Notes under the pieces: model-generated
Database searches by the model: none
What the model was told of the DNA's origin: nothing
What the model saw: the letters and a program-made list of their open reading frames with translations, nothing else
Source: a virus
DNA: 64,000 bases
Reading direction: 5' to 3' (one strand)
Virus record (IMG/VR): IMGVR_UViG_3300044922_000175
Span: 32,001 to 96,000 of that record
Shown here: one piece after another, positions 5,166 to 24,158 of the stretch
Numbering within the stretch: position 1 is the first letter of the stretch
How the letters are laid out: every line of letters begins with the position of its first letter
Program-made: the position numbers and the translations under genes

Positions 5166-8100
5166 TTATTTTACATAGAAGTCTGTTACATTATCATAAG
5201 ACTGCCACCTGTTTATTGTATACAGTACTGGCAATGCATCTGACCATTGTTTGTTAAGTTTTAACTGACCCTTTCTAGAACCTTGTTTGTAATACAAACT
5301 CTCCTCATCAAACGCATAGTTATAAGGAAAAGCAAATGTATCACTAACAGCCTCTCCTAATTCACCTAGTAATTTAGAAGATGCTATAGGACTCTTCATT
5401 AACATGTAAGCATTAGCTGGACTAATGAAACTTGTTAATTCTGAAGTCTGTCTATCTGCTTGATAAGCTAAAGCATTTAATAGTCTCTTAAGCTCTTTGT
5501 CATCATCATCAAAATCCATACCTGCAATTAATGAAGATACAATATGAGCAATAGCAAAAGAAGATAAGATAAATGTAAGTTCTGTTGCTACCCGGTTTAA
5601 GTTTTTAATCTGATCTTCTCTTAAACTTTCTTTAGCATCCCTAATCTTAGTAAAGATATCTCCTCTTGCAGATTTAATATGAGATATAAAGCTAGCAAAT
5701 GTCCGGTATCTTCCCTCAATCCAACCAAGGTTTTCATCATAGTACTCTCTTTTAAATCTTGCTTTGAATGCTGGATATACCCACTTGTGAAACTGGAATA
5801 CTAATCTACCAATACTATAATCTTGTAAAGCAGCTCTATCTTCATTAGAGTAGTTACCGTGGATTTGTTTGTTTACTTCACGAATATTATTTCTAATATC
5901 ATAACGTTCTGTATCTGATAACTCAAAGCCCGGCTTTAAAGAAACATTACCGGTATTAGGATCAAAGTCATAAGCATCATATAAAGAGAGTGTCTCACCT
6001 TTATCATTTGTAATTTGCTTAGACATAAGAATAGCCATGCCTACTTTACTCTGCACGTTTGTTTCCGCAGCATCTTGTAAAACATAACCCCATTCCATTA
6101 ATCCACCTTTCTCCTGTACCTCTCTTTGAGCAACACTATCTACCATTCTGTATAGATAAAGTAAAGCTTCATATTTAGACTGAGGATCTTTTTGACCATA
6201 GTAACCTTTACTACTTGCTAATCCTTTAAATGTTCCAGGTAAATACTCACTGTTATAAATACCTACAGCTCTAAGCATAGCTTTTTTATCATAGAATAAT
6301 CCACCACCGGTTTCTATACCGTTGTTTATTCTACCCATAGCATAGTTATTTATATTACCAAAGATGTTAAATCCTACATATGATAAAGATGTTGCATTAA
6401 GTACTTTACTTATAACATTATCTACAGTAGTCTTATCAAACTCTTGCTCTTCATAGTAAACCATCTTTAACCATTTTTTCAAACGTGTAGCTGTTCTACT
6501 CTCTAAACCAGGTATAGTTTTAGCTTTAGTACCCGTAGCAGTACGTACCAATACATTCTGAGACTGACTATACTCTCTATTCTCAACAACTCTCTTTAAT
6601 GCAAAGATTGTATCTTCAGCATTACTCAAGTGTTGATAGTTAGAAGCCATTGCTCTAAACTTAATTAAGCTATCTACTAGATCAGTATTAAGCTCATCTT
6701 TACTAAGCATAGATTCATTTCTTTTGAGCTGCTGTTCTAACTCTTTTAACTGTTCTCTATACTTAGTTGTAGATACCTTACCATCTCTAAATTCAGTTTG
6801 TAATGCTTCTATCTCAGATTTAATCTTATCTATAGTAAACTGACTTTTAAGCTTACCTGTAAAGAAAATAGGAGGTGTTTCAATAATATTACCCTCTTCA
6901 TCTGTAAGAACCACCTTCTGGTAACCAGCATCTGTAAAGCTTTTAAACCAACTAGAAATAGATTTAGTCAAAAGTGTAGTAACACTAGCCGGATCCTCTT
7001 TTAATTTATTTAAGAAATTCTGCTTTTGCCTTGGTAACTTACCAGTCATATCCTTCTTAACTGAAGGAGGTAACATCTTAAGAGCTCCGTTTTCAAATTC
7101 TTGTAACCAGAAATCATAGAAATCTTTCTGTGCTCTCTCTAGTTCTGTAGTAGGATTCATGATCTTGATATACTTTTCATCAAGCATGTTCTCACCGGTA
7201 CTAGCAATGTCACGTACTTCTTTAAACTCTGGCTTTACAAACCATCCTTTTCTAACTGTAGTAGCTCCAAAATAACTACCATCTTTCTCTCTCTGTGCAG
7301 TTACATACTCAGAGTAGTTATAGTATTTATTCTTATACGCTGCATATTCTGCATCTGATACACCACGTTTTTTTCTCCAGCTATAGTTTCTATACTCTTC
7401 ATACTTATCCCGGATCTTTTTAAAATCATCAGTGTATTTGTGATAGTCACCATCTTCTGGTTTATTGTTAACTATTTTTTCAGATCTAGTAAACTCACTA
7501 TAAGCTTGTCTATTTAAGAAAAGTTCTTGGTTAAACTTAATATCTTCAACTTTAGCATCATCTAAATTTGGTATATTTATGTATTCTAACCAGTTATTAT
7601 TATTGTCTACAAGCTTATTTCTTAACTCGTAGAACTTCTTATAGTATTGATAACCAATCTTTTGTACATATCTACCAGTAAAATTTCCGTCCTTATCATA
7701 AACCAACATGAAATCATAATTGGGTTTACCACTTGATAAAGATGCTAATCTATTACCTAATGCAATTGCTTGATCACTAAATGCTTGTACATCATCCTCT
7801 ATCTTTTGCTTCTCTCTTTTATATACTTTATCAATAAGAGCTAAGATAGTATCCGTACTAGTTGCTAAGTCACCAAGTTGAGCATCAGCTACAGAGATAT
7901 CTGTAGTTTCTTTGATGATGGCTTTTATATCATCCTCTGTAAAATTTCTAGTAGAATTAGTTTTAATAAAATTAATAGTAAAGTTTTCTATAGCCTGATC
8001 AATTGTAGTATCAGCAATATTTAATAAATCTGTTACCGCAATTGCAATCTCTCTCTGACCAGGATTAACAACATTACTTAAACTAAGATTACGGATACCT

Positions 8101-10454
8101 CTATAGGTTTCCATAAACTTACTGAACATAAGTACTACAGAAATATAATCTTCTTTAGATACTGACTTAGGATTAGAGGCATACTTAATAAAGTTCTCTA
8201 ACTCTTCTTTAGAACTATTTAAGAATCTTCCTAATGCTATATCAGCTTTACCGGAGTTTATCTCAGTACTAAGTATAGCAATCAAACTATTAATTTTATC
8301 TATAGTCTGTTTCTTAGGTTTAACTTGTTTAGAGGAATCAATAATACTTTGTAATGCATCATTACGTTTTACTAACTGTGAAACTACATCCTTCATGAAC
8401 AAAGCAACGTTTGTATATTGCTCATCTGTTAAACCTGCTTCGGGTTTCTCATCTTCAGGACTTAAGAAATTAGGATCATTAGTTACATTGTAACCATTCT
8501 TTACTTTTAACTCATCAAGTGTATTCTTAAAAGGATCTGTAGGAATAATTGTATTTACATAAGCTAAGTTTTCTGTCTCATTATGCTGCACCACTCCTTC
8601 TACTCTAAACTTTTTTACCTTTTGATCTTTACCTTTACCTTCTATATCTAGATTATAATGATACGTAGATACACCAGATACTGGGAAACCATTAATGTTA
8701 GCTAACTTAGCATAACCCATTACCTGGATGCTTTGTTGTTGTTTAGTAGTTAATCTCTGACCTTGTAATAAAGTACCCTCATTTGTAGGATACGTAATCT
8801 CATAATATTCTGGATCTTTTATACTTGTTTTAGATACTTTTAAATCTACAATGTACAATGACCCATCTGGTTTAATGATAAGGATATCTAATGAGCCGGC
8901 AATTTTAGATTGATCATCAGCAAGAATAACTTGTGGTAAAATTATAGAACCATCTAATGTAAGTGTAGCTACATATGCACTAAGTGAATCATATGCATCC
9001 TCAGCTAAAGCCGGTTCTAATACAGTAACATTTTCTAGCGCCTCATCAAATGTTTTACCATTTATAATATCCTGAAGAATCTTATCAAAGTCTTTACCAA
9101 ACAATCTATTCATTTCATATAAACCATCTGGATCATTAAGACCACCTTTGATAGCAGAAGTCATAGACTTATATTCTTCTCCGGTTTCTAGATTAGTATA
9201 TGTATGTGTATCTTCATCTAGGAACATTGGAGTATCATATAGAGTATCTACTATATCTCTCTGTAAATTATTTACTGCTCTGTTCTTAGCAGCTTTTTTA
9301 GCCTCTTCTTTTCTGATATACTCAGGATCATTCTTATCAATACTAAGTTTAACTGTAGCCTGTACATCACTTGCAATGGGCCCAGTAGTAAATCTTAACT
9401 CTTTAGTATTTAATAACTTAGCAATATCAGTAAGAGTAACATTCTCTTTTAGATCTTGTACGTTAATGTTTAATTCATTTCCGGTAATTGCTTTGTAGAT
9501 ATCATTAACTAATTCTGCAAACCATTCTATAAACTCTCTAATAGCAGTTTTAAAAGAACCACCTGGTTGATTCTCATACTCTTTTTTAAAGTGTCTAGTT
9601 AATGCTTGAGTTACTAACTCTACATCTCTATACTTCTCAAAGAATCCTTTTTGTCCGGTGTAACTATCTTTAATCTGTTGAGTTAAAACAGGGAATGCTT
9701 GTCTAGCTTCAATAAGTAACTTACCAAAGATATCAGGTCTACCTACAAATAAAGCATCTACTACTGGATGCAGCATTTCTTCAATAGCTGTCTCTGTAGT
9801 AACCCTACTTTTAATTATGTATGCAGTGTTCTGATAATAAAAACTTTTAATCTTATCAAAGTTTAAATTAGGTTTAACCGGTAACTTATCATAGATCTTT
9901 TTAGCTTCTTCTACAGTTACAATCTCATAACTTACATCTGGTAAAACAGCAGATAAGTATTCTAGTACATCAATAGCATTATTAGTATTCTCTGATTCTC
10001 CAATTACATCAACTGGAGTGAACATGTTCTCTTTAAGAATAAACTCTATACTATTTTCTGTAGTTCTAAAATCATATGTCTCAGCCGGTATTCTATTGTA
10101 GTTCAGATAGTTAATAATCCGTTGTTTGTTATTATTAAGAACAGACTGATCTATTTCCCTCATACCTTCTGTAGTACCAGTAACAAAGTATCTAACTTGA
10201 CCATCTATTGTAACACCAGATATCATGCGTCTTTGTCTTAGGTTTCCTATGACAGCACTACCATATTGTTTTTTCTTAAGACTAAATCTTGCTTGATTAG
10301 CTTTTACAATGTCTTCTGCTTCTGCAATACTAGGAAATGTATCTGTATTTTCTTTGACTTGATAATTATCAATAATACTATCTACAACAAGATTATTATT
10401 GTATACACCCATTAGGGCTTTATATTCCGGTAAGTTTCTATTATGACAAGCCAT
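5166..10454 (-). CDS. Large virion cargo/ejection protein with PD-(D/E)xK nuclease domain and degenerate zincin
   Basis: 1762 aa. FLDEDTHTY...AGSLD(523)ILIIKPDGSLYIVD(537)LK(539). EEMLH at 9768-9782. Directly follows the vRNAP gene. Confidence 0.7.
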   Translation of the reverse strand: MACHNRNLPEYKALMGVYNNNLVVDSIIDNYQVKENTDTFPSIAEAEDIVKANQARFSLKKKQYGSAVIGNLRQRRMISGVTIDGQVRYFVTGTTEGMREIDQSVLNNNKQRIINYLNYNRIPAETYDFRTTENSIEFILKENMFTPVDVIGESENTNNAIDVLEYLSAVLPDVSYEIVTVEEAKKIYDKLPVKPNLNFDKIKSFYYQNTAYIIKSRVTTETAIEEMLHPVVDALFVGRPDIFGKLLIEARQAFPVLTQQIKDSYTGQKGFFEKYRDVELVTQALTRHFKKEYENQPGGSFKTAIREFIEWFAELVNDIYKAITGNELNINVQDLKENVTLTDIAKLLNTKELRFTTGPIASDVQATVKLSIDKNDPEYIRKEEAKKAAKNRAVNNLQRDIVDTLYDTPMFLDEDTHTYTNLETGEEYKSMTSAIKGGLNDPDGLYEMNRLFGKDFDKILQDIINGKTFDEALENVTVLEPALAEDAYDSLSAYVATLTLDGSIILPQVILADDQSKIAGSLDILIIKPDGSLYIVDLKVSKTSIKDPEYYEITYPTNEGTLLQGQRLTTKQQQSIQVMGYAKLANINGFPVSGVSTYHYNLDIEGKGKDQKVKKFRVEGVVQHNETENLAYVNTIIPTDPFKNTLDELKVKNGYNVTNDPNFLSPEDEKPEAGLTDEQYTNVALFMKDVVSQLVKRNDALQSIIDSSKQVKPKKQTIDKINSLIAILSTEINSGKADIALGRFLNSSKEELENFIKYASNPKSVSKEDYISVVLMFSKFMETYRGIRNLSLSNVVNPGQREIAIAVTDLLNIADTTIDQAIENFTINFIKTNSTRNFTEDDIKAIIKETTDISVADAQLGDLATSTDTILALIDKVYKREKQKIEDDVQAFSDQAIALGNRLASLSSGKPNYDFMLVYDKDGNFTGRYVQKIGYQYYKKFYELRNKLVDNNNNWLEYINIPNLDDAKVEDIKFNQELFLNRQAYSEFTRSEKIVNNKPEDGDYHKYTDDFKKIRDKYEEYRNYSWRKKRGVSDAEYAAYKNKYYNYSEYVTAQREKDGSYFGATTVRKGWFVKPEFKEVRDIASTGENMLDEKYIKIMNPTTELERAQKDFYDFWLQEFENGALKMLPPSVKKDMTGKLPRQKQNFLNKLKEDPASVTTLLTKSISSWFKSFTDAGYQKVVLTDEEGNIIETPPIFFTGKLKSQFTIDKIKSEIEALQTEFRDGKVSTTKYREQLKELEQQLKRNESMLSKDELNTDLVDSLIKFRAMASNYQHLSNAEDTIFALKRVVENREYSQSQNVLVRTATGTKAKTIPGLESRTATRLKKWLKMVYYEEQEFDKTTVDNVISKVLNATSLSYVGFNIFGNINNYAMGRINNGIETGGGLFYDKKAMLRAVGIYNSEYLPGTFKGLASSKGYYGQKDPQSKYEALLYLYRMVDSVAQREVQEKGGLMEWGYVLQDAAETNVQSKVGMAILMSKQITNDKGETLSLYDAYDFDPNTGNVSLKPGFELSDTERYDIRNNIREVNKQIHGNYSNEDRAALQDYSIGRLVFQFHKWVYPAFKARFKREYYDENLGWIEGRYRTFASFISHIKSARGDIFTKIRDAKESLREDQIKNLNRVATELTFILSSFAIAHIVSSLIAGMDFDDDDKELKRLLNALAYQADRQTSELTSFISPANAYMLMKSPIASSKLLGELGEAVSDTFAFPYNYAFDEESLYYKQGSRKGQLKLNKQWSDALPVLYTINRWQSYDNVTDFYVK

Positions 10455-10457
10455 CTC

Positions 10458-13400
10458 TTATAAATAACATCTTTTTATTTGTTCTACAAAACTATTCTGA
10501 TTACCACCACTAGTATTTACGTAATCTTTGTACTGTTCTACAAAATTAACAAATGAGGTAATATTTAAATCTTGTTTTATTTTTTCTTTTTGTTCATCTG
10601 TAAGTTCATTCATATAGAACTCATTAAGTACTGGGTATTCTGCTTTAGCTTTAAGAACAGCTCCCATAGATACATTAAATGCGGCAGCTGGTGCACTTGC
10701 TAACATAGCATCAATATCTCCAAATTCTTCAGTTTGTTCTTGAGCTTTAGGTGTTAAGGTCTTAGCTAATTCTTCAGGTGATTTTGCAGTTGTATCAAAA
10801 GGTTTACCATCTTTTTCATATGTAATTTTCTTACCTTCAGTTTTAACAGTAATACCATTAGAAGCTAGAGTACTTGATATATTAGCTGGAGCTTTACTAA
10901 AATCTATATTGGCTAATTGTTTATCTATACTTTGATCAAAATCTATATTATTTAAATCAGAAAATGCACCAGGATTATTAGCTACATTCTTATTTCTTCT
11001 ATTAGCAAAAATACCTGTAAATGTTGGTAAACTACCAGGAATTACAAAGCCTGCAGCAAATTGTTTTCTAGAACCAATAGGATCAAATTTCTCATACTCA
11101 GCAGATACACCAAACGCATACATGTCACCAGGTTGAATAAGATCAGCTAAGTTTTCCTCTTGTTTAACTCTATCTCTCTTTATAGTTTTTAATCTATAGA
11201 AAGTTTTTTTATTAAATGTATAGTCTATTGTTTTAAGTACTATAGGAAAACCTATTTGTGTTTTACCATCTTTACTCTCTTGTACTAAGCCTGCAATTCT
11301 TAAATAGTTTAAGTTATACCTATAGAACTTTTTACCTTCATCAGATAATCTGGATTCTCCAGGTAAAGCTACCATAGGTTGTACAATCTGATAATTACCA
11401 TTCTGATCAACTATCATCTCATCACCTTTATAGTTAGATACGTCACCCAAAGGAATTAACTCTCTTTCAAATGTGGTATTTTTAAATACATTAATCTGAA
11501 TACCAGTATCAGTTGTAGTAATTGGTGATTGTATTTTAGTATTTTCTGGAATATCTAATTTTTTCTTAAGTTCTTTAACCTCATTATTCTTAGCTAAATT
11601 TGTTTTTAGTGTTTTTGTAAAGAACGTTGTATTAGAACTTTGTAAGAATCCTCTAACAAACTCATTGTATAATTGATTAATACTTGCACCAAATGTCTTT
11701 TTAACAAAAGCATTATCAGCGCTTCCTTTTAATGCATTAACTGCAGCACCAGAGGAGTTAAGAATCATCTCAAACATAAAGTTTGGCATTACTCTAATAA
11801 AAGATCCAGACTTAAACTGACCGCCATCTTTAACAAGTAAGTAATGGAATAGATCAATTGCATAAGGTCTAGTTAACTCATTAGTATATAACTCCATAAA
11901 GCTATACTGAATCTTGTTAAGCTGTAATTTACTTAACTTGGTCCAGTTATTAAAGTCTACTTTATTAATACCATCTTTGTTAGATTTATTAGCACCAGTA
12001 ATTGCAAATAAGAATTTGTTTGCAAAATAGTTATTAGGACTTAACTCTCTTAACTTCTTAACTACATCAGTTACATTATCCATATTTTCAGGTAACGTGC
12101 TTGCTGCCTGGTCATAAATCATTCCATTATTCAAAGAAGCTAATGCTCTTTTATAACCACCTTTATTTAGAATGTTTAGATAAGCTTTGATTGCAAAAAA
12201 AGAAATTAAGTTTTGATCTAGTGACTTCTTAAAGTTTTTACGGTCCCTAAAGTTAACTTCTGTATTTGCTAATACTATATCGCGCATTCTATTAACTACA
12301 GGTGTACGGTTTAACATTACACTACCAGTTAAAGATCTAATTTCTCTATATACAGTAAAGTTAAATCCAAATGTAGTATTCTGATTACGTAGTAAAGAGC
12401 GAATATCAAATGGTATTGAACTAGTTTCAAACTCTTTGTCAGTCATCTCTAAACCTAAATCTACAGCTTTATCATAAATCTCATCAAACTCTGTAAGATC
12501 TTTAGGTAGTCCCTTATTTACTTTTAATACTGCAGATACATTCATAAAAGTATCTGATTGAAGATTTAAAGTTTTAAAGCTATTAAGTACATATACCTGA
12601 ATTTCAGGAGTATTTCTTTTAATACCTGCAATAAGATCTGCTGTTGTAATATTAGTAGGAATTTCTTTTACATCATACTTTTCTATTAGATTCTTAATAA
12701 TAGTATTCTTACTTACTTTTCTTTCAGCATCTGTAGCATATGAAGATTTATTTGTTCTTAAAGTTTTATAGAACTTACGTATTGCCGGTTGATTGATGAA
12801 TAGTAAGCTATCCTCTAATGATACACCCTGTGCTACCATATTAGCTACAACACCTAATGAATCAATATTAAGATTTAACTTAGCAGCAAGACGTTCTTTA
12901 GCATTATCCGTCATTGCTGATACTAAAGCAGACAAAATATCAGCTATCCTTTTACCATCATATTCTCCAGTTTTTGGATTATAAGCTTTAGTTTCACCAT
13001 ATGTATCAAACTCTTTACCATTAAGTTTAAATCTTAATGTTTTAAGTTCTATTGTCTCACCTGTTTCATCTGTATAAGAACTTGCTTTTCTAATATTAAT
13101 ATTATTAGTATTTAATAATGAATAAACAAGTAGAGAGTTAACTGCCGGTCCAATGTTTCTAGCACCTTCTTTGTTATTTCTAAATGCATAGTACTTACCA
13201 AGTAAAGTATCAATATTATATTTACCTTCTTCCAACTGATCTTTAAGTTCAGGAAACTGCTCGGTAAAGCTTTTAACAATATTAATAAGAGGATCTACAG
13301 TGGCTACCTGGAATGCTTTAGGAATCTCCCCTTCTTTTGCAGTAACCATATCTGTATTATTTAATAAAGCAATACGAGCATTTACAATGATATTGTTAAG

Positions 13401-16400
13401 TGCTCCTTGATAAGGTTCATACCCTAACTTTTCTATTTTAGTATTATACTCATCTGCAGTAGATGGTAAATTTAAATATTGTAAAGCTGCTTTAGTAACT
13501 TCTTCTTGATTTATATAATCATCAAAATAATCAGAGTCTGAAATATCTATATCTAATTCCTGTAAAGCTTCTAGCTCATCAGCTTTTTCTTTTTTAAGAG
13601 CACTATAAAACTCAAAATATGCTTTCTTAAATTCTTTATTCTTACTAAACTGATATTTTACAAACTGATTGAACTTTTCTGTTTTAGTAGTTCCACTACC
13701 ATAAGCTATAAATTTGCCATTCTCTACTAACCATTCTTGAATGGCTATGTAAAGTTTATCAATATCAAAGTCAGCTCCAGATATCTCAATAAGTTCTTGT
13801 GGAAATACTGCAGATGATCCATAGTATACCGGCATAAAGTCTACAAGTTTAAGAGCTACTGCAGAGTGTTTATCCTGTGAAGGAATACGTACTCCAAACA
13901 TTTTAGCTACAGCATCTGGTATTTTATCACCTGGTTTAATAAAGCTTAATAACTCTTTAAAGTGAGCTGGCATAATAAACTCAGTAAAGTATCCGGTAAT
14001 CTTACCGTTCTCATCATACTCAGGTACGTTATGTCTTAAATCATCTACATAATAATCACCTACTTGTAAATCATTAAAGGTTCTATTTTCTAGATCAGAC
14101 TGAGTTTTAGGTGTACCATATTTAGAAGGATTAAGTTTAAATTCTTCAACTCTTATAAGCTCCCATCTTTTTGGTTGACCATTCTCATCTAACTCTAATA
14201 CTTTTTTAAGTTGTTTTACACCATAGTCAGATACCAATGCTACAGCATGTCCTGGAACTTTTTCAGATAAAACACCTTTAGAGAAATATGATAAGAACAA
14301 CTCAACAAACTTGTCAATAGTAATGGGTGAGTTAAGATCATATTTAGGTTCTCCTTGCTCATCTAGTTCAAAGAACTCAATCATTTGAGCATCACCTGCT
14401 GAAGATTTTAATGTTTCAATAGCATATTTTTGGAATGCTGCAAGTTTAGGAGTTACTGTCCCAGCTGCAATAGATTTTTTAACCTCTTCTAATCCTGAAT
14501 CTAAAGTAAAGATTGCATTTCTTTTTTCAAGATAATTGACTTTAACTCTATTAAGAGATGAATTTTGATAAATCTTTTTAAGGTCTCCAACAGAAATGTC
14601 GGTACCCATAAAGTTAACTATTGTTTCATCATTTTGTTCAGCTGTAAGAATTGTTTTAATCTGAGTAGTATCTGTAATTTTAACTTTATTAGAAGGGTTC
14701 TCTAATTGTAATCTCCAATACTTAGTACTAGTCTCAATAAAGTTTCTATCAGTAATACTATTTACATCACTAGCTACATTTGTCTTTTTACCTTTAGATC
14801 CAGATACAGGAATTGCTAAACTTACAGTTTCTCTATCTTTTTCATATGCTTCAAGTGTATTACGCAAACTATGTAATTCTTCTTTACCAGGTAATGCATA
14901 TTGAAACTTATTACCATAAGAAGTAAATTCTTTAGTTAATACAAAACCAGAGGTCTTAATATATGTTTGACCGTCAAAGTATACTAACTTAATTGAGTTA
15001 GTAGCAGCATCAAATGATACAGCACCTTTTTGAGTACTATCACCAAAGAAGAAATCACCAGTTACTGTTTCACCATTTTCAATTTTGTTTAATAACTCAG
15101 CTTGAATAGGAGATAATTTACCTAAACCAAATAATGTATAACGTAAAGCTTTTACAGTCATCCACATCTGAGCATTTGCTTTTTCTCCTTTACCACCCGC
15201 ATATTTAGCTTGAAATAAAGGATCAGAAAGAGTAACTATATGTGCAGTTTTAAATGCATGTTTAATACCTAATCTTTCATCTGTTATAATAGCTTCAATG
15301 TTAGCACCAGTAGCATTAGATCCCTTAGCTCTTTTAACTTCATCTACGGCATCTTTAAATGATATAGCATGGTCACCATGCATTAATTGGTTAATAGCTG
15401 TAGTATTGATAAAATCATTTACATATATCTGTAAAAGATTATATCTGTAATCATTATTTTTTAAATTAAAAAAACTATTTTTAGTTATATCTTCTTTAGC
15501 TTTCTTCTTATCTTTTTCTTTTATAGTAAAACCTTTAGTTACAAAAGATGCTAATGCAGATTTAGTTACTTTTCCATCCTCTACTTGTAAAATGTTATCC
15601 TCATCTAATAAATCTATTAGATAGTTTACATCATTAAGCATAGATTGAGTCATCTCTTTTTTAATCTGTGCTTTTTGTTTTTCTGTTAAAGGTAAATTTT
15701 CTTGAGCTTGTGCTTCTAATTCATTCTTTAAATCTTCACTTATTAGTTTACCAGTCTTAAATAAAGTAAGACCACGCATTTTACCAGTATTAAAGTCATA
15801 GATCTCATCTATAAACTCACCATTAGCTACTCTTTGAATACGAGTATACTCCTGTTCTACAAAACCAAGCATTGCGTTTTCTGCTTGTTTTGTTAAAGTA
15901 TTTTTACCGGATGCTTTAGCAGCGGCTTTAATTATAGGTAAGTTAACTACATTACCAGTACTAGATGCTTCAAGGACACGAATAAGATGGGTGGATGTAC
16001 CAAACTTAACTTTATTTCTTTCTTGTACATCTCCGGTAGAATATAGATCAAGTAAACTAACAATAAATTCTTCAGGGGTAAAACTACCATATGTAGTTCC
16101 TTCACGTCTGTTAACCTCAAGTTGTTTATTTTCAATTACATCACCATCTTCTGTTTCATTAAGACTACTTACTTTTTGTCCATCAATTCTTTTAACTGTA
16201 ACTAAATCAAGAGATGCTAAGAAGTTTGGATCATTTAATAAATAGTTATTTGCTAAGAATGGATCCTTTAATAACTCTTCAATACCACCGGCTTTCTTAA
16301 TCTCATTTATCTTAACTAAGTGATATGATGGTAATTGGTGTACATATACTAATTGCCCTTCTGCATTTTTCCAGCTAGTAGCATATACAGACTCATCAAA

Positions 16401-19400
16401 TATGGCATTTGCTTTTGCAAGATTATATAAACGTGTAGTAGCACCACCTTCTAGTACTTCTGTTTCTGGAGTAACTTCTCCTGTTTCAGCATCTACAGTT
16501 ATTTCATACTGAACATTAATAAAAGGATTTTCTTCAGTATCTACTAAATCAGATAACGCATCTATATCTTCTATAGTAATTGGTGTTACGTTAGAATATA
16601 TCTTAAATAATTTAATTTGCTGATCTGTAAGAGTAGTTATATTATTTGCAATAGAATAAGACAAATACATACCACTTAAAGAAATACCTAAAGTCTCCAT
16701 TAATTCTACAGATAACTTATTAGTTACCTGGATTAACTCATCATCAGTATATTTCTTAGTTGGTGCCATTGCTGTTTTAATCTTAGTTAAAACAAGTTTA
16801 GCTTTAGCTTTTGATTCAGGAGTTAACTTACTTTCATAAATATTACTATATGCTTGTGACCACTGATCAAATTGCACTTTACCAGAATCTTTTCTATTTG
16901 CAGAAATAATATTTGCAATCTCTTTTTTAAGATCCTTATTGATAAACAAATAGTCAATGGCATACTGACCAAAACCTTTTGTAAAAGATTGGAACAAATA
17001 ACTATTTTTAACATTAGAGAGATCAGGATTACCTTCTTCATCAAATGTTACTCCGGTCTGAATAAAGAATTCATCAATGACTTTACCAGACTCAAAGTTT
17101 CTATCTTTATATAGATTAAGTTTTAAAAGAACTTCATCAATAGTTTCAGTTCCAGCAATTGCTTTAAGAATACCATTGTATACAGTAGAACCATCTACTG
17201 ATTGAATATAAGGCGTACCATCTAAAAATTGTACATTACCAAATTCATCAGCTGCTTGATATGTAATAGTAGATATCCAAGATCTTAAAAACTTAGATAA
17301 ACTACCAAAACCACCTACACTAGCAGCACCCTCGGTATAATTCTGCTTACCTCTTTCTCCTAACTCATCTATAATATCGTCTGAAGCATCTTGCTCATTA
17401 GTTTCTTTAATACTTAAAATAGCTAAATGCTCACGTACTGCCTCCTTAAGAATTTCTCTATTTTCAATTAAGCTAAATATACTTCTATACTCTTTTAATT
17501 TAGCAATTTCTTTACTTTTAAGATCTATATATTGTTCTAATTTTGGATTATAAAGTTCTTTATAGTCATTTAATATTCCATCTAATAAATCTTCTGTATT
17601 AGTTTGCTTATCTGCATCTTTAAGTTTGTTATTATATATAGCAGCTACACTTGCAGATAATCTAGTACCCTCTTGTTCTGGTAAATACTTATCTACTCTA
17701 ATAAGATTAACTTCACCTTCAGCAGCAAATGTAGAATCTTCAATGACATCTGTACCAATTTTAATAGCTTTAAGTACTGGTTCACTGATATCAAATGGAG
17801 AGTCTGTATATCTATTAGTAACTACCTTACTATTTCTATACTTACCGGCATCAATATTGTCAAATAAAGAGTTTAATTCATTCTTACCAAATCTGCTAAA
17901 TACTTTCTTAATAAGCTCAACAATTTTAGCAAACAAACTTTTGTTTACATGACTAGTCTCTGTTTTTTTATTAATCTTCCAAGCTTCAAACTTATCAGCA
18001 AGGTACTCTTCATACATTCTCTCTTCTAACTGAGACTCACTCATTGCTGCATAAAGAGGATTTAATAAGCGCATCTCTTCTTTAGCCAAAGAGAATGACT
18101 TACCTTCTTTACGCAACTGATCCCTTAACTCTTTTTTAGCAATTGTTAAGTATCTAGATATCTGAGCATCACTTAGTAATAAACGAAATACTGCGTGGAA
18201 AGCTTCATGATATTTAAAAGGAGAACTAGCAGATGTATATATAGTACCGTTAACTTCTACATTACCAGCTACATTAGACAATGAAGATACAAATGCACCT
18301 ACAGTCTTACTACCATTATATAAGTTATTCTTAAGAGTATTTAGATCTTCTACAGTTATAAAGTCTGGAAGATTGTTTTGTACCCAGGTTAAGAACTCAG
18401 TTAAGTTAGTTATATCAGATTCAGTATAACCAGCATCTACTACTTTTAATCCTATAGAATTAGATAATACTTCAATCTGACCTTTAATAGCTAATACCTC
18501 TGGAGAGTTTTCAGCTTGTGTTCTAATCTCTCTTTTTTCAGCTACAGTTAATTCTTCACCTTTTTCAGCAAATCTTTTATCTCTTAATTCATCATCAACC
18601 TCATCCATTTTATCATACAGTTCAGCTTGTAACTGTTTAATTTGTTGTGGAATAGATTGTTGAGCAGCTAATACTTTATTTAAAACATCTGCAGAACTTA
18701 CTTGAATAGGTTCTTTAGGTTTTTCAGTAGGTTCAGTAACGGGAACAACTGGAGGATTAACCGGTGCAACACCTCTTAATAAATCCGGATTAGATGTAGG
18801 ACTAGTAGGAGCTGAACTAAAGTCAATATTACCAAGGGCACTATCTAATACCGAATCATCTACTTTTGGTAATATAGGATTAGCTTGAACATCAGAAGCT
18901 GGCTCAAGCATATCTAGATACACAGATACATCTTTAACCACATTAGTTCCTACACTGGCTTCCATATCTAAAACCTGCAGCGTATCAATAGTCATTGGCA
19001 ATGCTGCTTTAAATGATCTACCAGTAAGGATAATATCCATTTTATTGGCTGGTAATTTTACATCAGCATCATGCTCTTTAATTGCAGTATTTAATAAAGA
19101 AAGTAATTCTGAAAAAGTATTAAACTCAGGATCATTAATAATCCTCTTACGAGTTATTTTATCAGTTCTAGAATTTTTATTTACAAAGTCTAAAACTATT
19201 GATCCATTAGGACTAACATAAACATCTAAGAACTTACCTTTATCTTTTAATGGTAAAGAAATAAATACCTTATTGCCAATATTATCTTCATTCCATACAT
19301 CATTGTATTCCTGAGCTAATGGTTTAGCTTCTTCATCTAGATTCTCTTTCTTAGTTAACTCAATTCTTTCTTTAATACTAGCAGCTAAAGTATTTAGCTC

Positions 19401-22400
19401 TTCAGAAGAAAGCTCTGGTGTAGTTAACTCAACAAATCTAACTTTACCATTAGGTAGTTTAACAACAGCTACATATCTACCATAGTTAAGTAAAGTATCA
19501 TAACCACTTTTGTATCTGGCATCATCAACTTCTTTAATGGTTGACTCTAATAAATCAGGATCAATATCTGTAATAGGAGAACCTTCTACAGTTATAATAG
19601 AACCATTCTTATATTTATTCTTTCTATCAATTACATAGATACCATTATTAATAGTGTTATATGCTAATTCAGAAAGTTTTGGTCTTTCCTCATCACGAGA
19701 TAGGAACTCATAAGATCCTAAACCAATATTAACATTTGCAACCTTCTTAAGATCTGAATAAGAAATCTCAACAGAATCGCTGCTACCTAATTTAGATTTT
19801 AAATAATTTAATAAAGCAACTTTGTTTTTGTAACTAGCTTTTATATTAGCAACAGCTTGATTATATCTACCATTCTTTAAATAGAAAGCTTGCTTAACTC
19901 TATCTGCATTTATTCTATCATAAGAGATAGGATTACCATTTACATCTAAGAATTGGAAAGATGTAGGGTTAGGTAAGTAACCAATCTCTTCACCATTAAA
20001 TACTAATGCAATTGCATATGAATCAGTAAATAAACCAAGTGATTGATTTTCTTTCTGATCTTCTAATTTAAGGTAGGCATATCTCTGAGGTGATTTATTT
20101 AGATTAGTAAATCTAATACTTAATCCCTTTTGTAATTGTTCTATGGGAGTATCTCTTAATAAATTACTTAGACGTGCTGTTGCATCTTTCTGAGATTCAC
20201 CCTCCATTCTTTTACCCCAAGCTTTATCTAATACACTAATAGAATCAAACCTTGATGCGTATTCTTTTTTGTCAATAGGAGCTCTCTCTAATTTAAATCC
20301 AGTAAAAGATTTAGTAGTAAGAACGGCACCAGTTTTAACATTCTTAAGTTTAAGATTAGAACCAGCAGCAATTTCTGCAGGATAAGAGAGCACTATATAC
20401 TCATTGTTTTTTGTATCTGATATAATCTGTCCATTAACTAATGGAACATTATCAAATACAAACTCCTTTTTATTTTTAGCTAAATAGTTACCAATTCCTT
20501 TTTGTGCTTTCTGAGCTTCTTCTAAACTTGTATAAGCATCTACCTCAAAAGGTATTAACTCATCTGGTTTATTTGTTGCATTAATAGCATTAGTACCATC
20601 ATTTAATTTTACAAAATAAATATCTCCAATTTCTGCACCTTCAATAGATCCGCTAAGCTTAGTTATAAATACACCATTATATCCAGGTGAAACAACGCTT
20701 TCACCCTCTTCTAATGCTGTAGTAACGTATTGATTCTCATCTCTTTGTTGAATAAAGATATCAGAGAATGTTACATTATTTTTATTTAATACATCAAAGA
20801 TTAAAGGTGTTCTAGCATTAGTTCTTAGCCACTCTGTAAACTCAGGTTTAGTTTCTGTAATGGCATCATACGTTCCTTCTAACTCTGTAATAGCATTAAT
20901 AATACTAATCGCTTTTTTACTTGTTACAAACTCTTCAAATGATACAGGAATATCAGCTTCTCTTAAAGTCTTTAAGTAATCATCATAAGCTCTACGTACA
21001 ATTGTCTGAGTAAACTCACTTACATCTTCAATATCTTCTGAACCAAATTCTTCCTCTTCTTCTGTAGTATCTGTAGAAAATTGAGATGGCTCTTTGGGTT
21101 TAGTATTAGATGGAGTTTGTTTTACTTCAACTTTTGTTTTTACTTCAAACTCTGATACAAAAGCTTTAATATTCTGAAATCTAGCATCTTCTACACCAAA
21201 TAATTTATTGCTATTTAAATCTCTAAACTTTATATCTGGATCAGTTAGAATGAGTTCTTTAAGCTCATCAAAACTATTTGTTTCTAAATTCTTTAAATAT
21301 TTAAGATCAATAACAAATCCACCAGCAGCTAATGATTTTAAGAATATACCAATCTTAGATGTTTCAGCATATTTCTTAAATGCTTTCTTAAAGAACTCCG
21401 CCCTTCTTTTATCTCTAGCAACAATTAAAGTGCGCTCTCTTTGAGCAAGCTTAATAAAATTATTAGGATCATATAAATCAGACAGAACTTTGTTAAAATT
21501 AGTCTTATCATAATTAAGCGCATAGTAATCAGTAAAGATTCTATAGGCTTCATTTAGATCTGCAGGATTAAGTGTAGTACCTTTCTCATCTAAAAGAACC
21601 TTCATGTAATCAGTAAAGGCTTTCTTTAAATAAGAGGTCTTTCTTACTTCTACAGGATCATTAATATTCTCAATACGGGCAAGATTAGTTTTTAAAGATT
21701 CTAAAGCTTTTAACTTCTTCTTCTTATTATTAGTAATCTCAATAAGAGCTGGATCAGTTATATCTTTACTTGAATCAATTTCTGCAGTTAATAAGTTTAT
21801 TTCTGTATCAATACTTGGAATACTCAAAGTAGCTGTAACATCAGAGTAACTTAAATTACCAACTCCTGCAATAGATGACATCTGTTTTGTCAAATCAGCC
21901 ATGCGAGTTTTAGCTTGCTCTAAACCATGCAAACTAAATACTGCAGTTTTACGGGCCTCTTCAAAAGCTTTATGGTTTTGTAACTCATTAATAAATCCAG
22001 TAATAGCTTCGGGAGTATCAGCAAATTTATATGTATTAGGATTATAAGGATTCTTAAATGCAGAAAACTGCTCATACTGATCTTTAATTTGACCAGCTCT
22101 ATCAATAGTAATATCTAATACTTGCTTTGCTTCTTCATCAGTAACATCATCCTTTAAATCAAATGCCTCTTTTAATTCTTCACCAGTCATTTGTTTCATA
22201 TCCTCTAGTTTCTGAATTAAGAAATCAAACTTATTAGTTTGTAGTGCTGTATAAACACTATTAAATCGAGCTATATCCTTAAGATCGTGGAATGCTTTTT
22301 CATCAAATGATTTTCTAGCATTAACCATATCAGTACCTGCTTTAATTTGTACTAATAAGTTATCTATATCAAGAGCTAAAACTTTATTACCATTATTAAT

Positions 22401-24158
22401 AGCATCATTTAATTCAACAGCTATCTTATCAAATCTGGCACTTTCTTCTGCATAAGCTTTTCTATACTCTTCTGGGTTTTTAGCTTGTGCTATCTTACCA
22501 ATAATATTTTTAGTGCTACCATAAGCTCTGTTAGCTACAGCAGTAGAAATACCAGTAAGACCACCCATTAAGAAACCTGAAGCAAATACTTCAATACCTT
22601 GTGCTGATGCTTGATCTTTAAGATTGTCATAGGCATCTGCTAAATAAGCTACTACACCTCCAGCTTCTGGAGTATCATATAATCTTTCATAGTAATCTGT
22701 AGATGCCCCAGAAATAATCTCTTGAGAAATTTCTTGAAGACCTTCAGATAAGTTTTTGGAGAAATAACTACTAGCAAAATTTAAATATGTCTTTGGAGTC
22801 TTAAGACCTCTTACGCTTTCAGCAAAAGATTGTCTTATACCCATAGTCTCAAACTGACCAGTCTTCTCTGAAAATCTTAATGTACGTCCACTTAATTTAC
22901 TTTCTTCTACAATACCTGAAGCTGTCTTACCTAAAGTTCTCTTACGACCTTTGTATAAGTTATCAAAAGTAATATTGTTTGTAAGAAGAATGAGGGGAGC
23001 ATTTATTAGACCCGTTGTAAAACCAGCATCTGATGCTTTCTCATAAATTCTATTTAATCTATCTTGATCTGGATATACTCCATTCTCAGTAATGTATTCA
23101 TTAATATGCTTATCAATAAAATCATTCTTAACTCCTCCGCCTTCCATAGAAGCTTCAGCAGTAGCATAACTAATCTGCTTCATATCTCTTACAAAGTCGG
23201 CAACCCCTCTTACTGAATTAGCTAATCCTAATACAGGACTTTCTGCAGTAATAAAACTCTTAACATTCTTAAATGTATTAGGAACGATGTTCTTAGCAGT
23301 TGCTTCAGCTACATTTAATGCGCCTCTACCAATAGCTGCTACATCCATAGCCTTAATTGTATTGTAAGCTTGTCTAGCAGCGTTAGCATCAAACAACGCA
23401 GAGATAGATTTGATTGTACCGGCTGTCTTTGCAGCACTAGCAGCAAGAGCAGCAGGAAGAGCCATACCATCAGATAAAGCCACCGCACCAGTAAGTAATG
23501 CTTCAGTAGCTAAATAGTCTGCAGCAATACCTGCAACAAATCCTGATTGTAAAGCTAAGTTAGAAACAAAACCAGCAGCACCACCTCTTGTACTACCACG
23601 TTCTGCCATAATCTGGGAGAACTCTCTAGCACCGGTTTCATCAGTCATAGAGAAATCACCAGTTGCCATATCAGCAAGACTTCTATATCCTGATTGAACA
23701 ACAGATAATCCTAATGCAGGAATACCACCAGCTGCTCTAAATAGATCTTGATACCAACTTCTATTCTGATTATATAAAGCTTCATTATTACTTACAGGAT
23801 TAAAACCTAACTTATAAAAGTTATCACTATCGTTATAGTATCTATCAAAGTTTGTTTGTTGGTATCCAGGCTGAAAGTATTTTTCTTTTGAGTTCTGAAA
23901 TGCAATATCAGATTCAGTAATAGGTTTTGCCATTGCTTGTTTAGCAACATCAAAAGGATTACTAGGATCATAATCTACAGCAACACTACCAAATGCTGAA
24001 GGCACTGGAACCCCAGGAACAGCATAAGTATCAGTTACGGATATTAGCGGCTCATTAGTTGGCGCAATACTTGCTTGAAAAGCATCTGATCCTTCAAAGT
24101 TAGAAGGCAAACCGGGTTCAACACCTAGTGGTGGAATTGCATTGTCAAATTCTTCCAT
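10458..24158 (-). CDS. Giant virion RNA polymerase fusion protein (crAss-like two-barrel RNAP) with N-terminal ejection-type region and zincin domain
   Basis: 4566 aa. Catalytic GADFDIDKL (DFDID at 13758-13772, aa 3463-3467), RIPSQDKHS (13863-13889), DEVKRAKG and TDNAKE motifs. HEAFH at 18195-18209 (aa 1984-1988) with later EEYLAD. Confidence 0.88.
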   Translation of the reverse strand: MEEFDNAIPPLGVEPGLPSNFEGSDAFQASIAPTNEPLISVTDTYAVPGVPVPSAFGSVAVDYDPSNPFDVAKQAMAKPITESDIAFQNSKEKYFQPGYQQTNFDRYYNDSDNFYKLGFNPVSNNEALYNQNRSWYQDLFRAAGGIPALGLSVVQSGYRSLADMATGDFSMTDETGAREFSQIMAERGSTRGGAAGFVSNLALQSGFVAGIAADYLATEALLTGAVALSDGMALPAALAASAAKTAGTIKSISALFDANAARQAYNTIKAMDVAAIGRGALNVAEATAKNIVPNTFKNVKSFITAESPVLGLANSVRGVADFVRDMKQISYATAEASMEGGGVKNDFIDKHINEYITENGVYPDQDRLNRIYEKASDAGFTTGLINAPLILLTNNITFDNLYKGRKRTLGKTASGIVEESKLSGRTLRFSEKTGQFETMGIRQSFAESVRGLKTPKTYLNFASSYFSKNLSEGLQEISQEIISGASTDYYERLYDTPEAGGVVAYLADAYDNLKDQASAQGIEVFASGFLMGGLTGISTAVANRAYGSTKNIIGKIAQAKNPEEYRKAYAEESARFDKIAVELNDAINNGNKVLALDIDNLLVQIKAGTDMVNARKSFDEKAFHDLKDIARFNSVYTALQTNKFDFLIQKLEDMKQMTGEELKEAFDLKDDVTDEEAKQVLDITIDRAGQIKDQYEQFSAFKNPYNPNTYKFADTPEAITGFINELQNHKAFEEARKTAVFSLHGLEQAKTRMADLTKQMSSIAGVGNLSYSDVTATLSIPSIDTEINLLTAEIDSSKDITDPALIEITNNKKKKLKALESLKTNLARIENINDPVEVRKTSYLKKAFTDYMKVLLDEKGTTLNPADLNEAYRIFTDYYALNYDKTNFNKVLSDLYDPNNFIKLAQRERTLIVARDKRRAEFFKKAFKKYAETSKIGIFLKSLAAGGFVIDLKYLKNLETNSFDELKELILTDPDIKFRDLNSNKLFGVEDARFQNIKAFVSEFEVKTKVEVKQTPSNTKPKEPSQFSTDTTEEEEEFGSEDIEDVSEFTQTIVRRAYDDYLKTLREADIPVSFEEFVTSKKAISIINAITELEGTYDAITETKPEFTEWLRTNARTPLIFDVLNKNNVTFSDIFIQQRDENQYVTTALEEGESVVSPGYNGVFITKLSGSIEGAEIGDIYFVKLNDGTNAINATNKPDELIPFEVDAYTSLEEAQKAQKGIGNYLAKNKKEFVFDNVPLVNGQIISDTKNNEYIVLSYPAEIAAGSNLKLKNVKTGAVLTTKSFTGFKLERAPIDKKEYASRFDSISVLDKAWGKRMEGESQKDATARLSNLLRDTPIEQLQKGLSIRFTNLNKSPQRYAYLKLEDQKENQSLGLFTDSYAIALVFNGEEIGYLPNPTSFQFLDVNGNPISYDRINADRVKQAFYLKNGRYNQAVANIKASYKNKVALLNYLKSKLGSSDSVEISYSDLKKVANVNIGLGSYEFLSRDEERPKLSELAYNTINNGIYVIDRKNKYKNGSIITVEGSPITDIDPDLLESTIKEVDDARYKSGYDTLLNYGRYVAVVKLPNGKVRFVELTTPELSSEELNTLAASIKERIELTKKENLDEEAKPLAQEYNDVWNEDNIGNKVFISLPLKDKGKFLDVYVSPNGSIVLDFVNKNSRTDKITRKRIINDPEFNTFSELLSLLNTAIKEHDADVKLPANKMDIILTGRSFKAALPMTIDTLQVLDMEASVGTNVVKDVSVYLDMLEPASDVQANPILPKVDDSVLDSALGNIDFSSAPTSPTSNPDLLRGVAPVNPPVVPVTEPTEKPKEPIQVSSADVLNKVLAAQQSIPQQIKQLQAELYDKMDEVDDELRDKRFAEKGEELTVAEKREIRTQAENSPEVLAIKGQIEVLSNSIGLKVVDAGYTESDITNLTEFLTWVQNNLPDFITVEDLNTLKNNLYNGSKTVGAFVSSLSNVAGNVEVNGTIYTSASSPFKYHEAFHAVFRLLLSDAQISRYLTIAKKELRDQLRKEGKSFSLAKEEMRLLNPLYAAMSESQLEERMYEEYLADKFEAWKINKKTETSHVNKSLFAKIVELIKKVFSRFGKNELNSLFDNIDAGKYRNSKVVTNRYTDSPFDISEPVLKAIKIGTDVIEDSTFAAEGEVNLIRVDKYLPEQEGTRLSASVAAIYNNKLKDADKQTNTEDLLDGILNDYKELYNPKLEQYIDLKSKEIAKLKEYRSIFSLIENREILKEAVREHLAILSIKETNEQDASDDIIDELGERGKQNYTEGAASVGGFGSLSKFLRSWISTITYQAADEFGNVQFLDGTPYIQSVDGSTVYNGILKAIAGTETIDEVLLKLNLYKDRNFESGKVIDEFFIQTGVTFDEEGNPDLSNVKNSYLFQSFTKGFGQYAIDYLFINKDLKKEIANIISANRKDSGKVQFDQWSQAYSNIYESKLTPESKAKAKLVLTKIKTAMAPTKKYTDDELIQVTNKLSVELMETLGISLSGMYLSYSIANNITTLTDQQIKLFKIYSNVTPITIEDIDALSDLVDTEENPFINVQYEITVDAETGEVTPETEVLEGGATTRLYNLAKANAIFDESVYATSWKNAEGQLVYVHQLPSYHLVKINEIKKAGGIEELLKDPFLANNYLLNDPNFLASLDLVTVKRIDGQKVSSLNETEDGDVIENKQLEVNRREGTTYGSFTPEEFIVSLLDLYSTGDVQERNKVKFGTSTHLIRVLEASSTGNVVNLPIIKAAAKASGKNTLTKQAENAMLGFVEQEYTRIQRVANGEFIDEIYDFNTGKMRGLTLFKTGKLISEDLKNELEAQAQENLPLTEKQKAQIKKEMTQSMLNDVNYLIDLLDEDNILQVEDGKVTKSALASFVTKGFTIKEKDKKKAKEDITKNSFFNLKNNDYRYNLLQIYVNDFINTTAINQLMHGDHAISFKDAVDEVKRAKGSNATGANIEAIITDERLGIKHAFKTAHIVTLSDPLFQAKYAGGKGEKANAQMWMTVKALRYTLFGLGKLSPIQAELLNKIENGETVTGDFFFGDSTQKGAVSFDAATNSIKLVYFDGQTYIKTSGFVLTKEFTSYGNKFQYALPGKEELHSLRNTLEAYEKDRETVSLAIPVSGSKGKKTNVASDVNSITDRNFIETSTKYWRLQLENPSNKVKITDTTQIKTILTAEQNDETIVNFMGTDISVGDLKKIYQNSSLNRVKVNYLEKRNAIFTLDSGLEEVKKSIAAGTVTPKLAAFQKYAIETLKSSAGDAQMIEFFELDEQGEPKYDLNSPITIDKFVELFLSYFSKGVLSEKVPGHAVALVSDYGVKQLKKVLELDENGQPKRWELIRVEEFKLNPSKYGTPKTQSDLENRTFNDLQVGDYYVDDLRHNVPEYDENGKITGYFTEFIMPAHFKELLSFIKPGDKIPDAVAKMFGVRIPSQDKHSAVALKLVDFMPVYYGSSAVFPQELIEISGADFDIDKLYIAIQEWLVENGKFIAYGSGTTKTEKFNQFVKYQFSKNKEFKKAYFEFYSALKKEKADELEALQELDIDISDSDYFDDYINQEEVTKAALQYLNLPSTADEYNTKIEKLGYEPYQGALNNIIVNARIALLNNTDMVTAKEGEIPKAFQVATVDPLINIVKSFTEQFPELKDQLEEGKYNIDTLLGKYYAFRNNKEGARNIGPAVNSLLVYSLLNTNNINIRKASSYTDETGETIELKTLRFKLNGKEFDTYGETKAYNPKTGEYDGKRIADILSALVSAMTDNAKERLAAKLNLNIDSLGVVANMVAQGVSLEDSLLFINQPAIRKFYKTLRTNKSSYATDAERKVSKNTIIKNLIEKYDVKEIPTNITTADLIAGIKRNTPEIQVYVLNSFKTLNLQSDTFMNVSAVLKVNKGLPKDLTEFDEIYDKAVDLGLEMTDKEFETSSIPFDIRSLLRNQNTTFGFNFTVYREIRSLTGSVMLNRTPVVNRMRDIVLANTEVNFRDRKNFKKSLDQNLISFFAIKAYLNILNKGGYKRALASLNNGMIYDQAASTLPENMDNVTDVVKKLRELSPNNYFANKFLFAITGANKSNKDGINKVDFNNWTKLSKLQLNKIQYSFMELYTNELTRPYAIDLFHYLLVKDGGQFKSGSFIRVMPNFMFEMILNSSGAAVNALKGSADNAFVKKTFGASINQLYNEFVRGFLQSSNTTFFTKTLKTNLAKNNEVKELKKKLDIPENTKIQSPITTTDTGIQINVFKNTTFERELIPLGDVSNYKGDEMIVDQNGNYQIVQPMVALPGESRLSDEGKKFYRYNLNYLRIAGLVQESKDGKTQIGFPIVLKTIDYTFNKKTFYRLKTIKRDRVKQEENLADLIQPGDMYAFGVSAEYEKFDPIGSRKQFAAGFVIPGSLPTFTGIFANRRNKNVANNPGAFSDLNNIDFDQSIDKQLANIDFSKAPANISSTLASNGITVKTEGKKITYEKDGKPFDTTAKSPEELAKTLTPKAQEQTEEFGDIDAMLASAPAAAFNVSMGAVLKAKAEYPVLNEFYMNELTDEQKEKIKQDLNITSFVNFVEQYKDYVNTSGGNQNSFVEQIKRCYL

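Follow-up and report, generated by a model that had tools for sequence, protein, structure and literature searches.

Crassviruses are the most abundant phages of the human gut. The virion RNA polymerase of the crAss-like phage phi14:2 is injected into the host and transcribes the early genes, and the zincin, polymerase and third proteins of its module are fused in some phages (bioRxiv 10.1101/2020.03.07.982082). In crAss001, the proteins gp47, gp49 and gp50 are cargo of the capsid, and partial unfolding is required for their exit (PMC10172136). Here we describe a viral locus related to these modules. It lies in a stretch of 64,000 nucleotides, hereafter called the window, that corresponds to positions 32,001-96,000 of the 125,939-bp IMG/VR record IMGVR_UViG_3300044922_000175, and coordinates below are those of the window. 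Two of its cargo genes, for a giant protein of 4566 residues and for a protein of 1762 residues, meet at a junction at which each protein has its only Cys residue, Cys4564 and Cys3, respectively. A prediction made earlier from the DNA letters (the original prediction) was that these residues form a disulfide or metal tether, so that both proteins are packaged or ejected in order as one chain. Our analyses make it probable that Cys4564 and Cys3 form an inter-protein disulfide in the mature virion, joining the two proteins head to tail, as judged from sequence comparisons and by analogy with another phage.

Closest described systems

That other phage is the cyanopodophage A4. In its pre-ejectosome, gp27 inserts its C-terminal helix into gp26, and cryo-electron microscopy shows the two proteins joined by a disulfide between Cys1715 and Cys5 (PNAS 2025, PMC12002296). 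In the A-4L genome (NC_024358), gp27 has 1717 residues with Cys1715 as its only Cys (...NPCQF*), and gp26, the product of the adjacent gene on the same strand, has 1114 residues with Cys5 only (MSKHC...). The window presents the same signature. Its two genes are likewise adjacent and on the same strand, the upstream Cys is found two residues from the C-terminus at the end of the terminal helix (Cys4564 of 4566), the downstream one is N-terminal (Cys3 of 1762), and both proteins are otherwise devoid of Cys. The A4 system differs from the crAss-like module in lacking an RNA polymerase and in having a single link, between two proteins; the A4 paper neither generalises the disulfide nor describes a rule of gene fission and fusion (PMC12002296). 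For the crAss polymerase module, a search of the full-text literature returned no paper describing terminal Cys residues or covalent linkage, and structural disulfides of crAss001 virions are reported only in gp57 and the tail (PMC10172136). A4 is the only known case of such a tether, and the crAss-like tether, the best-supported reading for the window, would be a variant of it.

A purge of Cys residues has been described for the ejection proteins gp50/gp71, gp72 and gp73 of N4-like phages (Schitoviridae) and attributed to their passage through the oxidising periplasm (PMC11445570), in agreement with the background given in the original prediction, namely that N4-type ejected proteins lack Cys. 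As in Schitoviridae, the window encodes a giant and most likely injected virion RNA polymerase and partners that are almost wholly purged of Cys. However, the purge is complete in Schitoviridae, with no conserved terminal Cys reported, whereas the window keeps one Cys at each facing end.

Cysteine content of the cargo proteins and their junction

The four Cys-poor open reading frames (ORFs) of the window and the elements of the junction are as follows.

26794..30378, minus strand: 1194-aa protein, no Cys and one His; probably cargo, outside the Cys-linked chain
24178..26739, minus strand: 853-aa protein, no Cys, no His and two Trp; directly upstream of the giant
10458..24158, minus strand: giant 4566-aa cargo protein, single Cys at residue 4564
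5166..10454, minus strand: 1762-aa third protein of the module, similar to crAss001 gp49 and phi14:2 gp65, single Cys at residue 3
10467..10469, minus strand: TGT codon of Cys4564, third residue from the C-terminus (...KRCYL*)
10458-10460, minus strand: TAA stop codon of the giant, from the sequence
10455-10457, minus strand: one-codon spacer GAG between that stop and the ATG of the 1762-aa protein
10446..10448, minus strand: TGT codon of Cys3 of the 1762-aa protein (MACH...)

On the minus strand, the junction reads AAA AGA TGT TAT TTA TAA GAG ATG GCT TGT CAT, that is, K-R-C-Y-L-stop, the GAG codon and M-A-C-H. The two ORFs share the same frame, and their Cys codons are 21 nt apart. The original prediction had given these positions, this distance and the in-frame TAA-GAG-ATG correctly to the base. 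Its manual count of only two Cys residues in about 8,375 aa, at residues 4564 and 3, was borne out by a scripted count, which yielded 0, 0, 1 and 1 for the 1194-, 853-, 4566- and 1762-aa proteins. Given the genome-wide frequency of Cys (0.81% in ORFs of at least 100 aa), about 86 would be expected in the same four proteins, and the Poisson probability of two or fewer is about 1e-34. The probability that both single Cys residues land by chance at most three residues from the facing ends is about 7.5e-7. No other such facing pair is present in the 126-kb genome.

As the junction between the giant and the 853-aa protein has a Cys on neither side, we place the latter outside the Cys-linked chain. 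The 853- and 1194-aa proteins are probably cargo as well. Their depletion extends beyond Cys, since the former also has no His and the latter only one.

A crAss-like RNA-polymerase module

By its sequence matches, the giant is a fusion between a zincin-bearing part of the type of crAss001 gp47 and p-crAssphage gp45 and a virion RNA polymerase similar to crAss001 gp50 and phi14:2 gp66. Residues 3165-3828 match gp50 (BLASTP, E 1e-19), including the catalytic SGADFDIDK stretch, and phi14:2 gp66 also has a match in the giant (BLASTP, E 7e-8). The DFDxD motif of these polymerases has been described (bioRxiv 10.1101/2020.03.07.982082), and its columns, DFDID here, are invariant in our alignment of the polymerase core region around the motif. 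Residues 1972-2111 match the C-terminal region of gp47 (residues 2145-2294; BLASTP, E 1e-7), with the HEAFH motif common to both. Thus, calling the 4566-aa protein a virion RNA polymerase, as the original prediction did, is correct in that it contains the polymerase but incomplete, because it also comprises the fused zincin-bearing part. The motifs and domain of interest are the following.

18195..18209, minus strand: HEAFH zincin motif, giant residues 1984-1988, aligned with HEAFH at residue 2157 of crAss001 gp47
13758..13772, minus strand: DFDID catalytic motif of crAss-type virion RNA polymerases, giant residues 3463-3467, from the gp50 alignment
9477..9992, minus strand: zincin-like domain, residues 155-326 of the 1762-aa protein, from VIA-align of the predicted fold

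Judging from its homologues, the 1762-aa protein completes the Crassvirales RNA-polymerase cargo module as its third component. It matches crAss001 gp49 (E 2e-31) and phi14:2 gp65 (E 2e-20) as well as 84 Crassvirales records in tblastn, and its C-terminal 500 residues match crAss001 gp49, which is annotated as a putative RNA-polymerase subunit. In a wide VIA-align search, residues 155-326 resembled the zincin folds of anthrax lethal factor and Pro-Pro endopeptidase, with middling Z scores of 6-7. The usual HExxH is replaced by EEMLH (residues 225-229, window 9767-9781), whereas relatives such as phi14:2 gp65 have HExxH. As E226, L228 and P230 are nearly invariant in the clade of the 1762-aa protein, its zincin-like metal site may be altered or inactive.

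The modules of phi14:2 (gp67-gp66-gp65) and crAss001 (gp47-gp50-gp49) resemble that of the window in having a homologous DFDxD polymerase, a zincin part and a third protein, with terminal Cys residues following the same rule in all of them. Unlike in those modules, the first two proteins are fused in the window, and therefore only one Cys pair is left. By analogy with these phages, in which the homologues are virion proteins, the giant and the 1762-aa protein most likely enter the virion and are injected. None of the four Cys-poor proteins obtained a useful match in PHROGs or Pfam, and blastn found no counterpart of the junction among 50,697 phage records. In phmmer searches, the 853-, 1194-, 775-, 1094- and 1579-aa proteins found nothing among crAss001 gp44-47, phi14:2 gp67-71 and p-crAssphage gp46-47; for this reason, crAss001 gp45 and gp46 are not taken as counterparts of the 853- and 1194-aa proteins.

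Conservation of the facing cysteines

A first scan of IMG/VR, seeded on the N-terminal 500 residues of the 1762-aa protein, collected 79 loci with 30-81% identity. As one of its seed patterns lies directly after the Cys, a second scan was seeded on the RNA-polymerase core and was thus blind to both termini. The combined sample comprises about 160 related viral loci (30-93% identity) with 85 distinct junction contexts; individual loci are designated below by L numbers. At every locus of the first scan with both ends visible, the downstream protein has 1,760-1,990 residues and one Cys, at position 3 or 4, and the last approximately 2,000 residues of the upstream giant contain one Cys, located 1-4 residues from the end except in a single outlier with 8 residues after it. 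The facing-Cys rule is strictly followed in 64 of the 67 distinct evaluable contexts of the polymerase-core sample, and the other three were explained on inspection. L101 complies if the second ATG is taken as the start. In L124, the giant gene has acquired a 609-aa ORF close to its 3' end, and its true C-terminal tail (...DDQKCHIK*) persists immediately ahead of MSKC.... In L164, a short ORF ending in ...NQTCKI* precedes MAC.... A further apparent exception, L093, has a GTG start codon that overlaps the stop (GCGTGACC), giving M-T-C.

Altogether, both facing Cys residues are present in 79 of the 85 contexts and neither in five, the remaining one being the L124 insertion; no context is truly one-sided. 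All five Cys-free contexts correspond to the boundary before the N-terminus of the giant, outside the chain. Conservation of the terminal Cys residues in orthologous gene pairs of crAss-like phages, which the original prediction had put forward as its own test, is therefore strongly established. These proteins contain 192 Cys in 408,841 residues, and 158 of them are facing terminal ones. The two ORFs share a frame at only 39 of the 85 junctions, with spacers of -13 to +54 nt, overlaps included. Both TGT and TGC are used for the facing Cys residues, and the spacing varies, which indicates that selection acts on the amino acid. On these grounds, and because crAss001 gp47 and gp50 are encoded on opposite strands, we rejected a signal at the DNA or RNA level.

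The same two residues stand out in alignments of 60 diverse sequences each. Cys3 is the sole invariant column in the N-terminal 500 residues of the third protein, and Cys4564 the sole invariant one in the C-terminal 500 residues of the giant, in lists that had been pre-filtered for a Cys at most 10 residues from the ends, a filter that removed only L124 among the relevant junctions. The mean column identity in the two alignments is as low as 12-18%.

With these alignments, we built AlphaFold2 (AF2) models of the two separate termini. The last 70 residues of the giant are predicted with confidence as a five-helix bundle (predicted local distance difference test score, pLDDT, about 95), whose final helix (488-498 of the last 500 residues) ends exactly at Cys4564. 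In the 1762-aa protein, Cys3 is part of a short coil (residues 1-8) that precedes a helix (residues 9-18; pLDDT 87). Both thiols are thus predicted at the tips of their chains. A Foldseek search of both models against the PDB gave no match at E ≤ 0.001, and profile searches of PDB sequences with the N-terminal part of the third protein and the C-terminal part of the giant returned nothing or noise.

Gene fission and fusion

The splitting and joining of the cargo genes among relatives provides a natural experiment. In phi14:2, the genes are transcribed in the order g067, g066, g065. The only Cys of gp67 (1797 aa) is its last residue, gp66 (2180 aa), the crystallised polymerase, has only Cys3 and Cys2179, and the single Cys of gp65 (1421 aa) is Cys3. 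The crAss001 proteins gp47 (2341 residues, ...ALRCNS) and gp49 (MAKKC...) likewise have one Cys each, Cys2339 and Cys5, respectively, and gp50 (2412 residues) has Cys5 (MSKRC...) and Cys2404 (...KICGANTLYEL) in addition to an internal Cys1334. The crAss001 gp47 and gp50 genes are non-adjacent and on opposite strands, and their products nevertheless keep matching Cys tips; the rule therefore belongs to the proteins and not to gene adjacency. Three gut phages have a single boundary, either between the zincin part and a polymerase fused to the third part (p-crAssphage and cr127_1) or between a zincin-polymerase fusion and the third part (cr50_1). In all three, the facing pair is found at that sole boundary, and the free ends have no Cys.

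Further splits are found within the proteins themselves. The giant is divided at about residue 1880, upstream of HEAFH, in L146, at about residue 2158, downstream of HEAFH, in the crAss001 type, and at about residue 3800 in L122, where the pieces have 3782, 859 and 1318 residues. The third protein is split at about residues 370-400 in L093 and L043. Each new boundary resulting from these splits, at four or more different positions, has a Cys pair, one at the C-terminal tip and one at the N-terminal tip. In contrast, the fused zincin/polymerase junction inside the giant of the window contains no Cys. Such a both-or-none pattern at independently created boundaries is as expected if the Cys pair replaces a peptide bond.

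Small linker proteins of 142-345 residues are also found between the giant and the third protein, and they have exactly two Cys residues, one at each tip.

L152:13528-14028, small two-Cys linker
L153:7228-7653, small two-Cys linker
L162:11311-12345, small two-Cys linker
L124:16036-16479, small two-Cys linker

Genes in pieces created by homing endonucleases are known elsewhere, for instance the split NrdA of phage Aeh1, with the insertion of a free-standing endonuclease. Similarly, genes for GIY-YIG homing endonucleases (Pfam PF01541, 30-36 bits for a cut-off of 22.6) are found inside or between pieces of Cys-tipped cargo genes in relatives of the window, the window itself having no such insertion.

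L043:7194-7859, GIY-YIG gene
L157:18663-19382, GIY-YIG gene
L162:12400-12990, GIY-YIG gene

The endonuclease ORFs of L043 and L157 share sequence with both neighbouring pieces, overlapping the ...C-x* end of one and the M-[AS]-C-K start of the other. Unlike proteins of the split NrdA type, the pieces have Cys residues at their new ends, which suggests that they are covalently re-tethered rather than simply reassembled by non-covalent contacts. Other insertions at junctions in relatives include a ferritin/Dps-like ORF (L159:13781-14266), the 609-aa ORF of L124, which has a YkuD L,D-transpeptidase domain (L124:14205-16031), and a Bro-N ORF (L146:13923-14762).

A proposed head-to-tail disulfide and its alternatives

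The head-to-tail pairing put forward in the original prediction is supported by the conservation of the two residues, by the other boundaries of the module and by the A4 signature. The presence of structural disulfides in crAss001 virions (PMC10172136) also speaks for it. We infer from these the bond itself in this phage family, together with the order of packaging and ejection and a release by reduction. Cys4564, at the tip of the last helix of the giant, would bond with Cys3 in the N-terminal tail of the 1762-aa protein, generating a thread of about 6,330 residues that would run from the zincin part to the RNA polymerase and, across the disulfide, to the third protein. Since only a few residues separate each Cys from the end of its chain, the joint would be nearly as thin as a peptide bond and able to pass through the narrow tail channel, which the thread would cross as an unfolded or partly unfolded chain. 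Internal Cys residues have probably been purged because they could form incorrect disulfides and thereby prevent unfolding. The tether might fix 1:1 co-packaging and enable the first protein to pull the next one through during ejection, and its reduction in the host cytoplasm would cut it and free the polymerase.

Several observations weigh against this proposal. Virions assemble in the reducing cytoplasm, so that the bond would have to form late, and gut crassviruses live in anoxic habitats. Gut crassvirus homologues have some internal Cys residues. Neither the crAss001 paper (PMC10172136) nor the phi14:2 preprint (bioRxiv 10.1101/2020.03.07.982082) mentions a bond between these proteins; the word 'cysteine' is absent from both texts and 'disulfide' from that of the preprint. 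No sequence or fold similarity between the crAss module and A4 gp26/gp27 was found by phmmer, BLASTP, profiles, Foldseek or VIA-align, and the A4 precedent is therefore best taken as an analogy rather than a homology. In particular, phmmer and BLASTP searches with A4 gp26-gp29 found nothing in the module, and the A4 chain was absent from the Foldseek and VIA-align matches, although distant homology could escape such searches. Finally, IAS virus (NC_049978, L166) does not fit the rule cleanly, as gp056, its annotated RNA-polymerase gene, has no N-terminal Cys codon. The product of the upstream, overlapping gp055 has Cys5 and another Cys three residues from its end. This anomaly may reflect a sequencing or annotation break, as the record contains ambiguous bases.

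Other roles for the two thiols can be envisaged. They might link the proteins without a disulfide, by sharing a metal ion (Zn, Fe or Cu) or by each binding a third component, for instance the portal or a protein of the inner capsid. The comparative data show that the thiols matter and not which chemistry they serve, and zincin-type metal sites are present in the module. Nevertheless, a metal site made up of just two thiolates would be poor, and neither a conserved His or Asp nor a second Cys is found alongside them. The both-or-none pattern at many boundary positions argues for mutual pairing of the Cys residues rather than binding to a fixed partner, and the A4 structure shows a plain disulfide, so we find a metal or partner link unlikely. 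The ends might also pair like with like, with giants joined by their C-terminal and third proteins by their N-terminal Cys residues, which would yield dimers and no chain. Although counts of N- and C-terminal Cys residues alone cannot separate homotypic from heterotypic pairing, this arrangement appears quite improbable: the doubly tipped middle proteins (phi14:2 gp66, the 859-aa piece of L122 and the 167-aa piece of L152) would polymerise, each gene fission leaves a Cys on both sides of the new boundary, and the A4 bond is heterotypic.

A regulatory or processing signal seems more improbable still. The presence of the HEAFH motif in the giant and of a predicted zincin-like fold in the third protein is compatible with a cysteine switch that would cap the zincin zinc until ejection, and cleavage of fused polyproteins, for which the Cys residues might mark maturation sites, has been proposed (bioRxiv 10.1101/2020.03.07.982082). 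However, Cys pairs occur far from any zincin domain (the 3782|859 and 859|1318 boundaries of L122, and gp67|gp66 of phi14:2), Cys3 is kept in the third protein of the window in spite of its degenerate EEMLH, and the giant is Cys-free at its fused junction. Readthrough of the TAA codon, which the original prediction held as a lesser alternative, would yield one protein of about 6,330 residues with an internal CX6C motif. It was suggested by the common frame of the two ORFs in the window and the single codon between stop and start. We rejected it as extremely improbable, given the minority of in-frame junctions and the varied, sometimes overlapping spacers among relatives, the matching tips of crAss001 gp47 and gp50 encoded on opposite strands, and the fact that the sole tRNA gene of the 126-kb genome, at genome positions 118313-118399, is a tRNA-Leu with anticodon TAA and not a suppressor. 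Protein trans-splicing by a split intein was also considered and discarded. Intein halves comprise tens to about 100 residues, and the sequence beyond the two Cys residues is too short for them, with only 0-4 residues (in one case 8) after the C-terminal Cys and only 2-4 (in one case 7) before the N-terminal one.

Going beyond the disulfide proposed for the window, Cys-tipped ends might constitute a general, redox-cleavable stitch that replaces the peptide bond in the giant injected proteins of crAss-like phages. Genes could then be split almost anywhere, including by GIY-YIG insertion, without preventing the whole cargo from being packed and injected as a single thread, which would fall apart by reduction in the cytoplasm. 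We regard this wider role as a tentative and rather doubtful possibility.

Other features of the window

The remainder of the window is a phage structural block encoding tail fibres, virion proteins and an endolysin-like protein. Two Cys-rich ORFs within this block, at 44705-45241 (6.2% Cys) and 45244-46782 (4.9%) on the minus strand, contrast sharply with the cargo proteins; the product of the former has a weak fn3 match, and the 512-aa product of the latter has no match. A 168-aa ORF (47238-47744, minus strand) has a single Cys as its final residue (...KVEDC*), with no family match and no obvious Cys-tipped neighbour. The 775-aa protein (30383-32710, minus strand) has a CxxC pair, Cys618/Cys621, weak matches to PHROG 220 (minor head protein and DNA pilot) and DUF5872/DUF5754 domains. 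DUF5872 is also present in the adjoining 1094-aa protein.

Implications for crassvirus infection

As podoviruses, crassviruses have to move about 0.7 MDa of protein through a narrow tail, including the RNA polymerase that starts infection. If the proposed disulfide is correct, a reducible covalent chain would explain fixed stoichiometry, ordered ejection and intracellular release together. The tether would also account for the purge of internal Cys residues and for the freedom with which the genes fuse and split. Should the general Cys stitch hold true as well, it would represent a third way to tolerate mobile insertions, besides introns and inteins.

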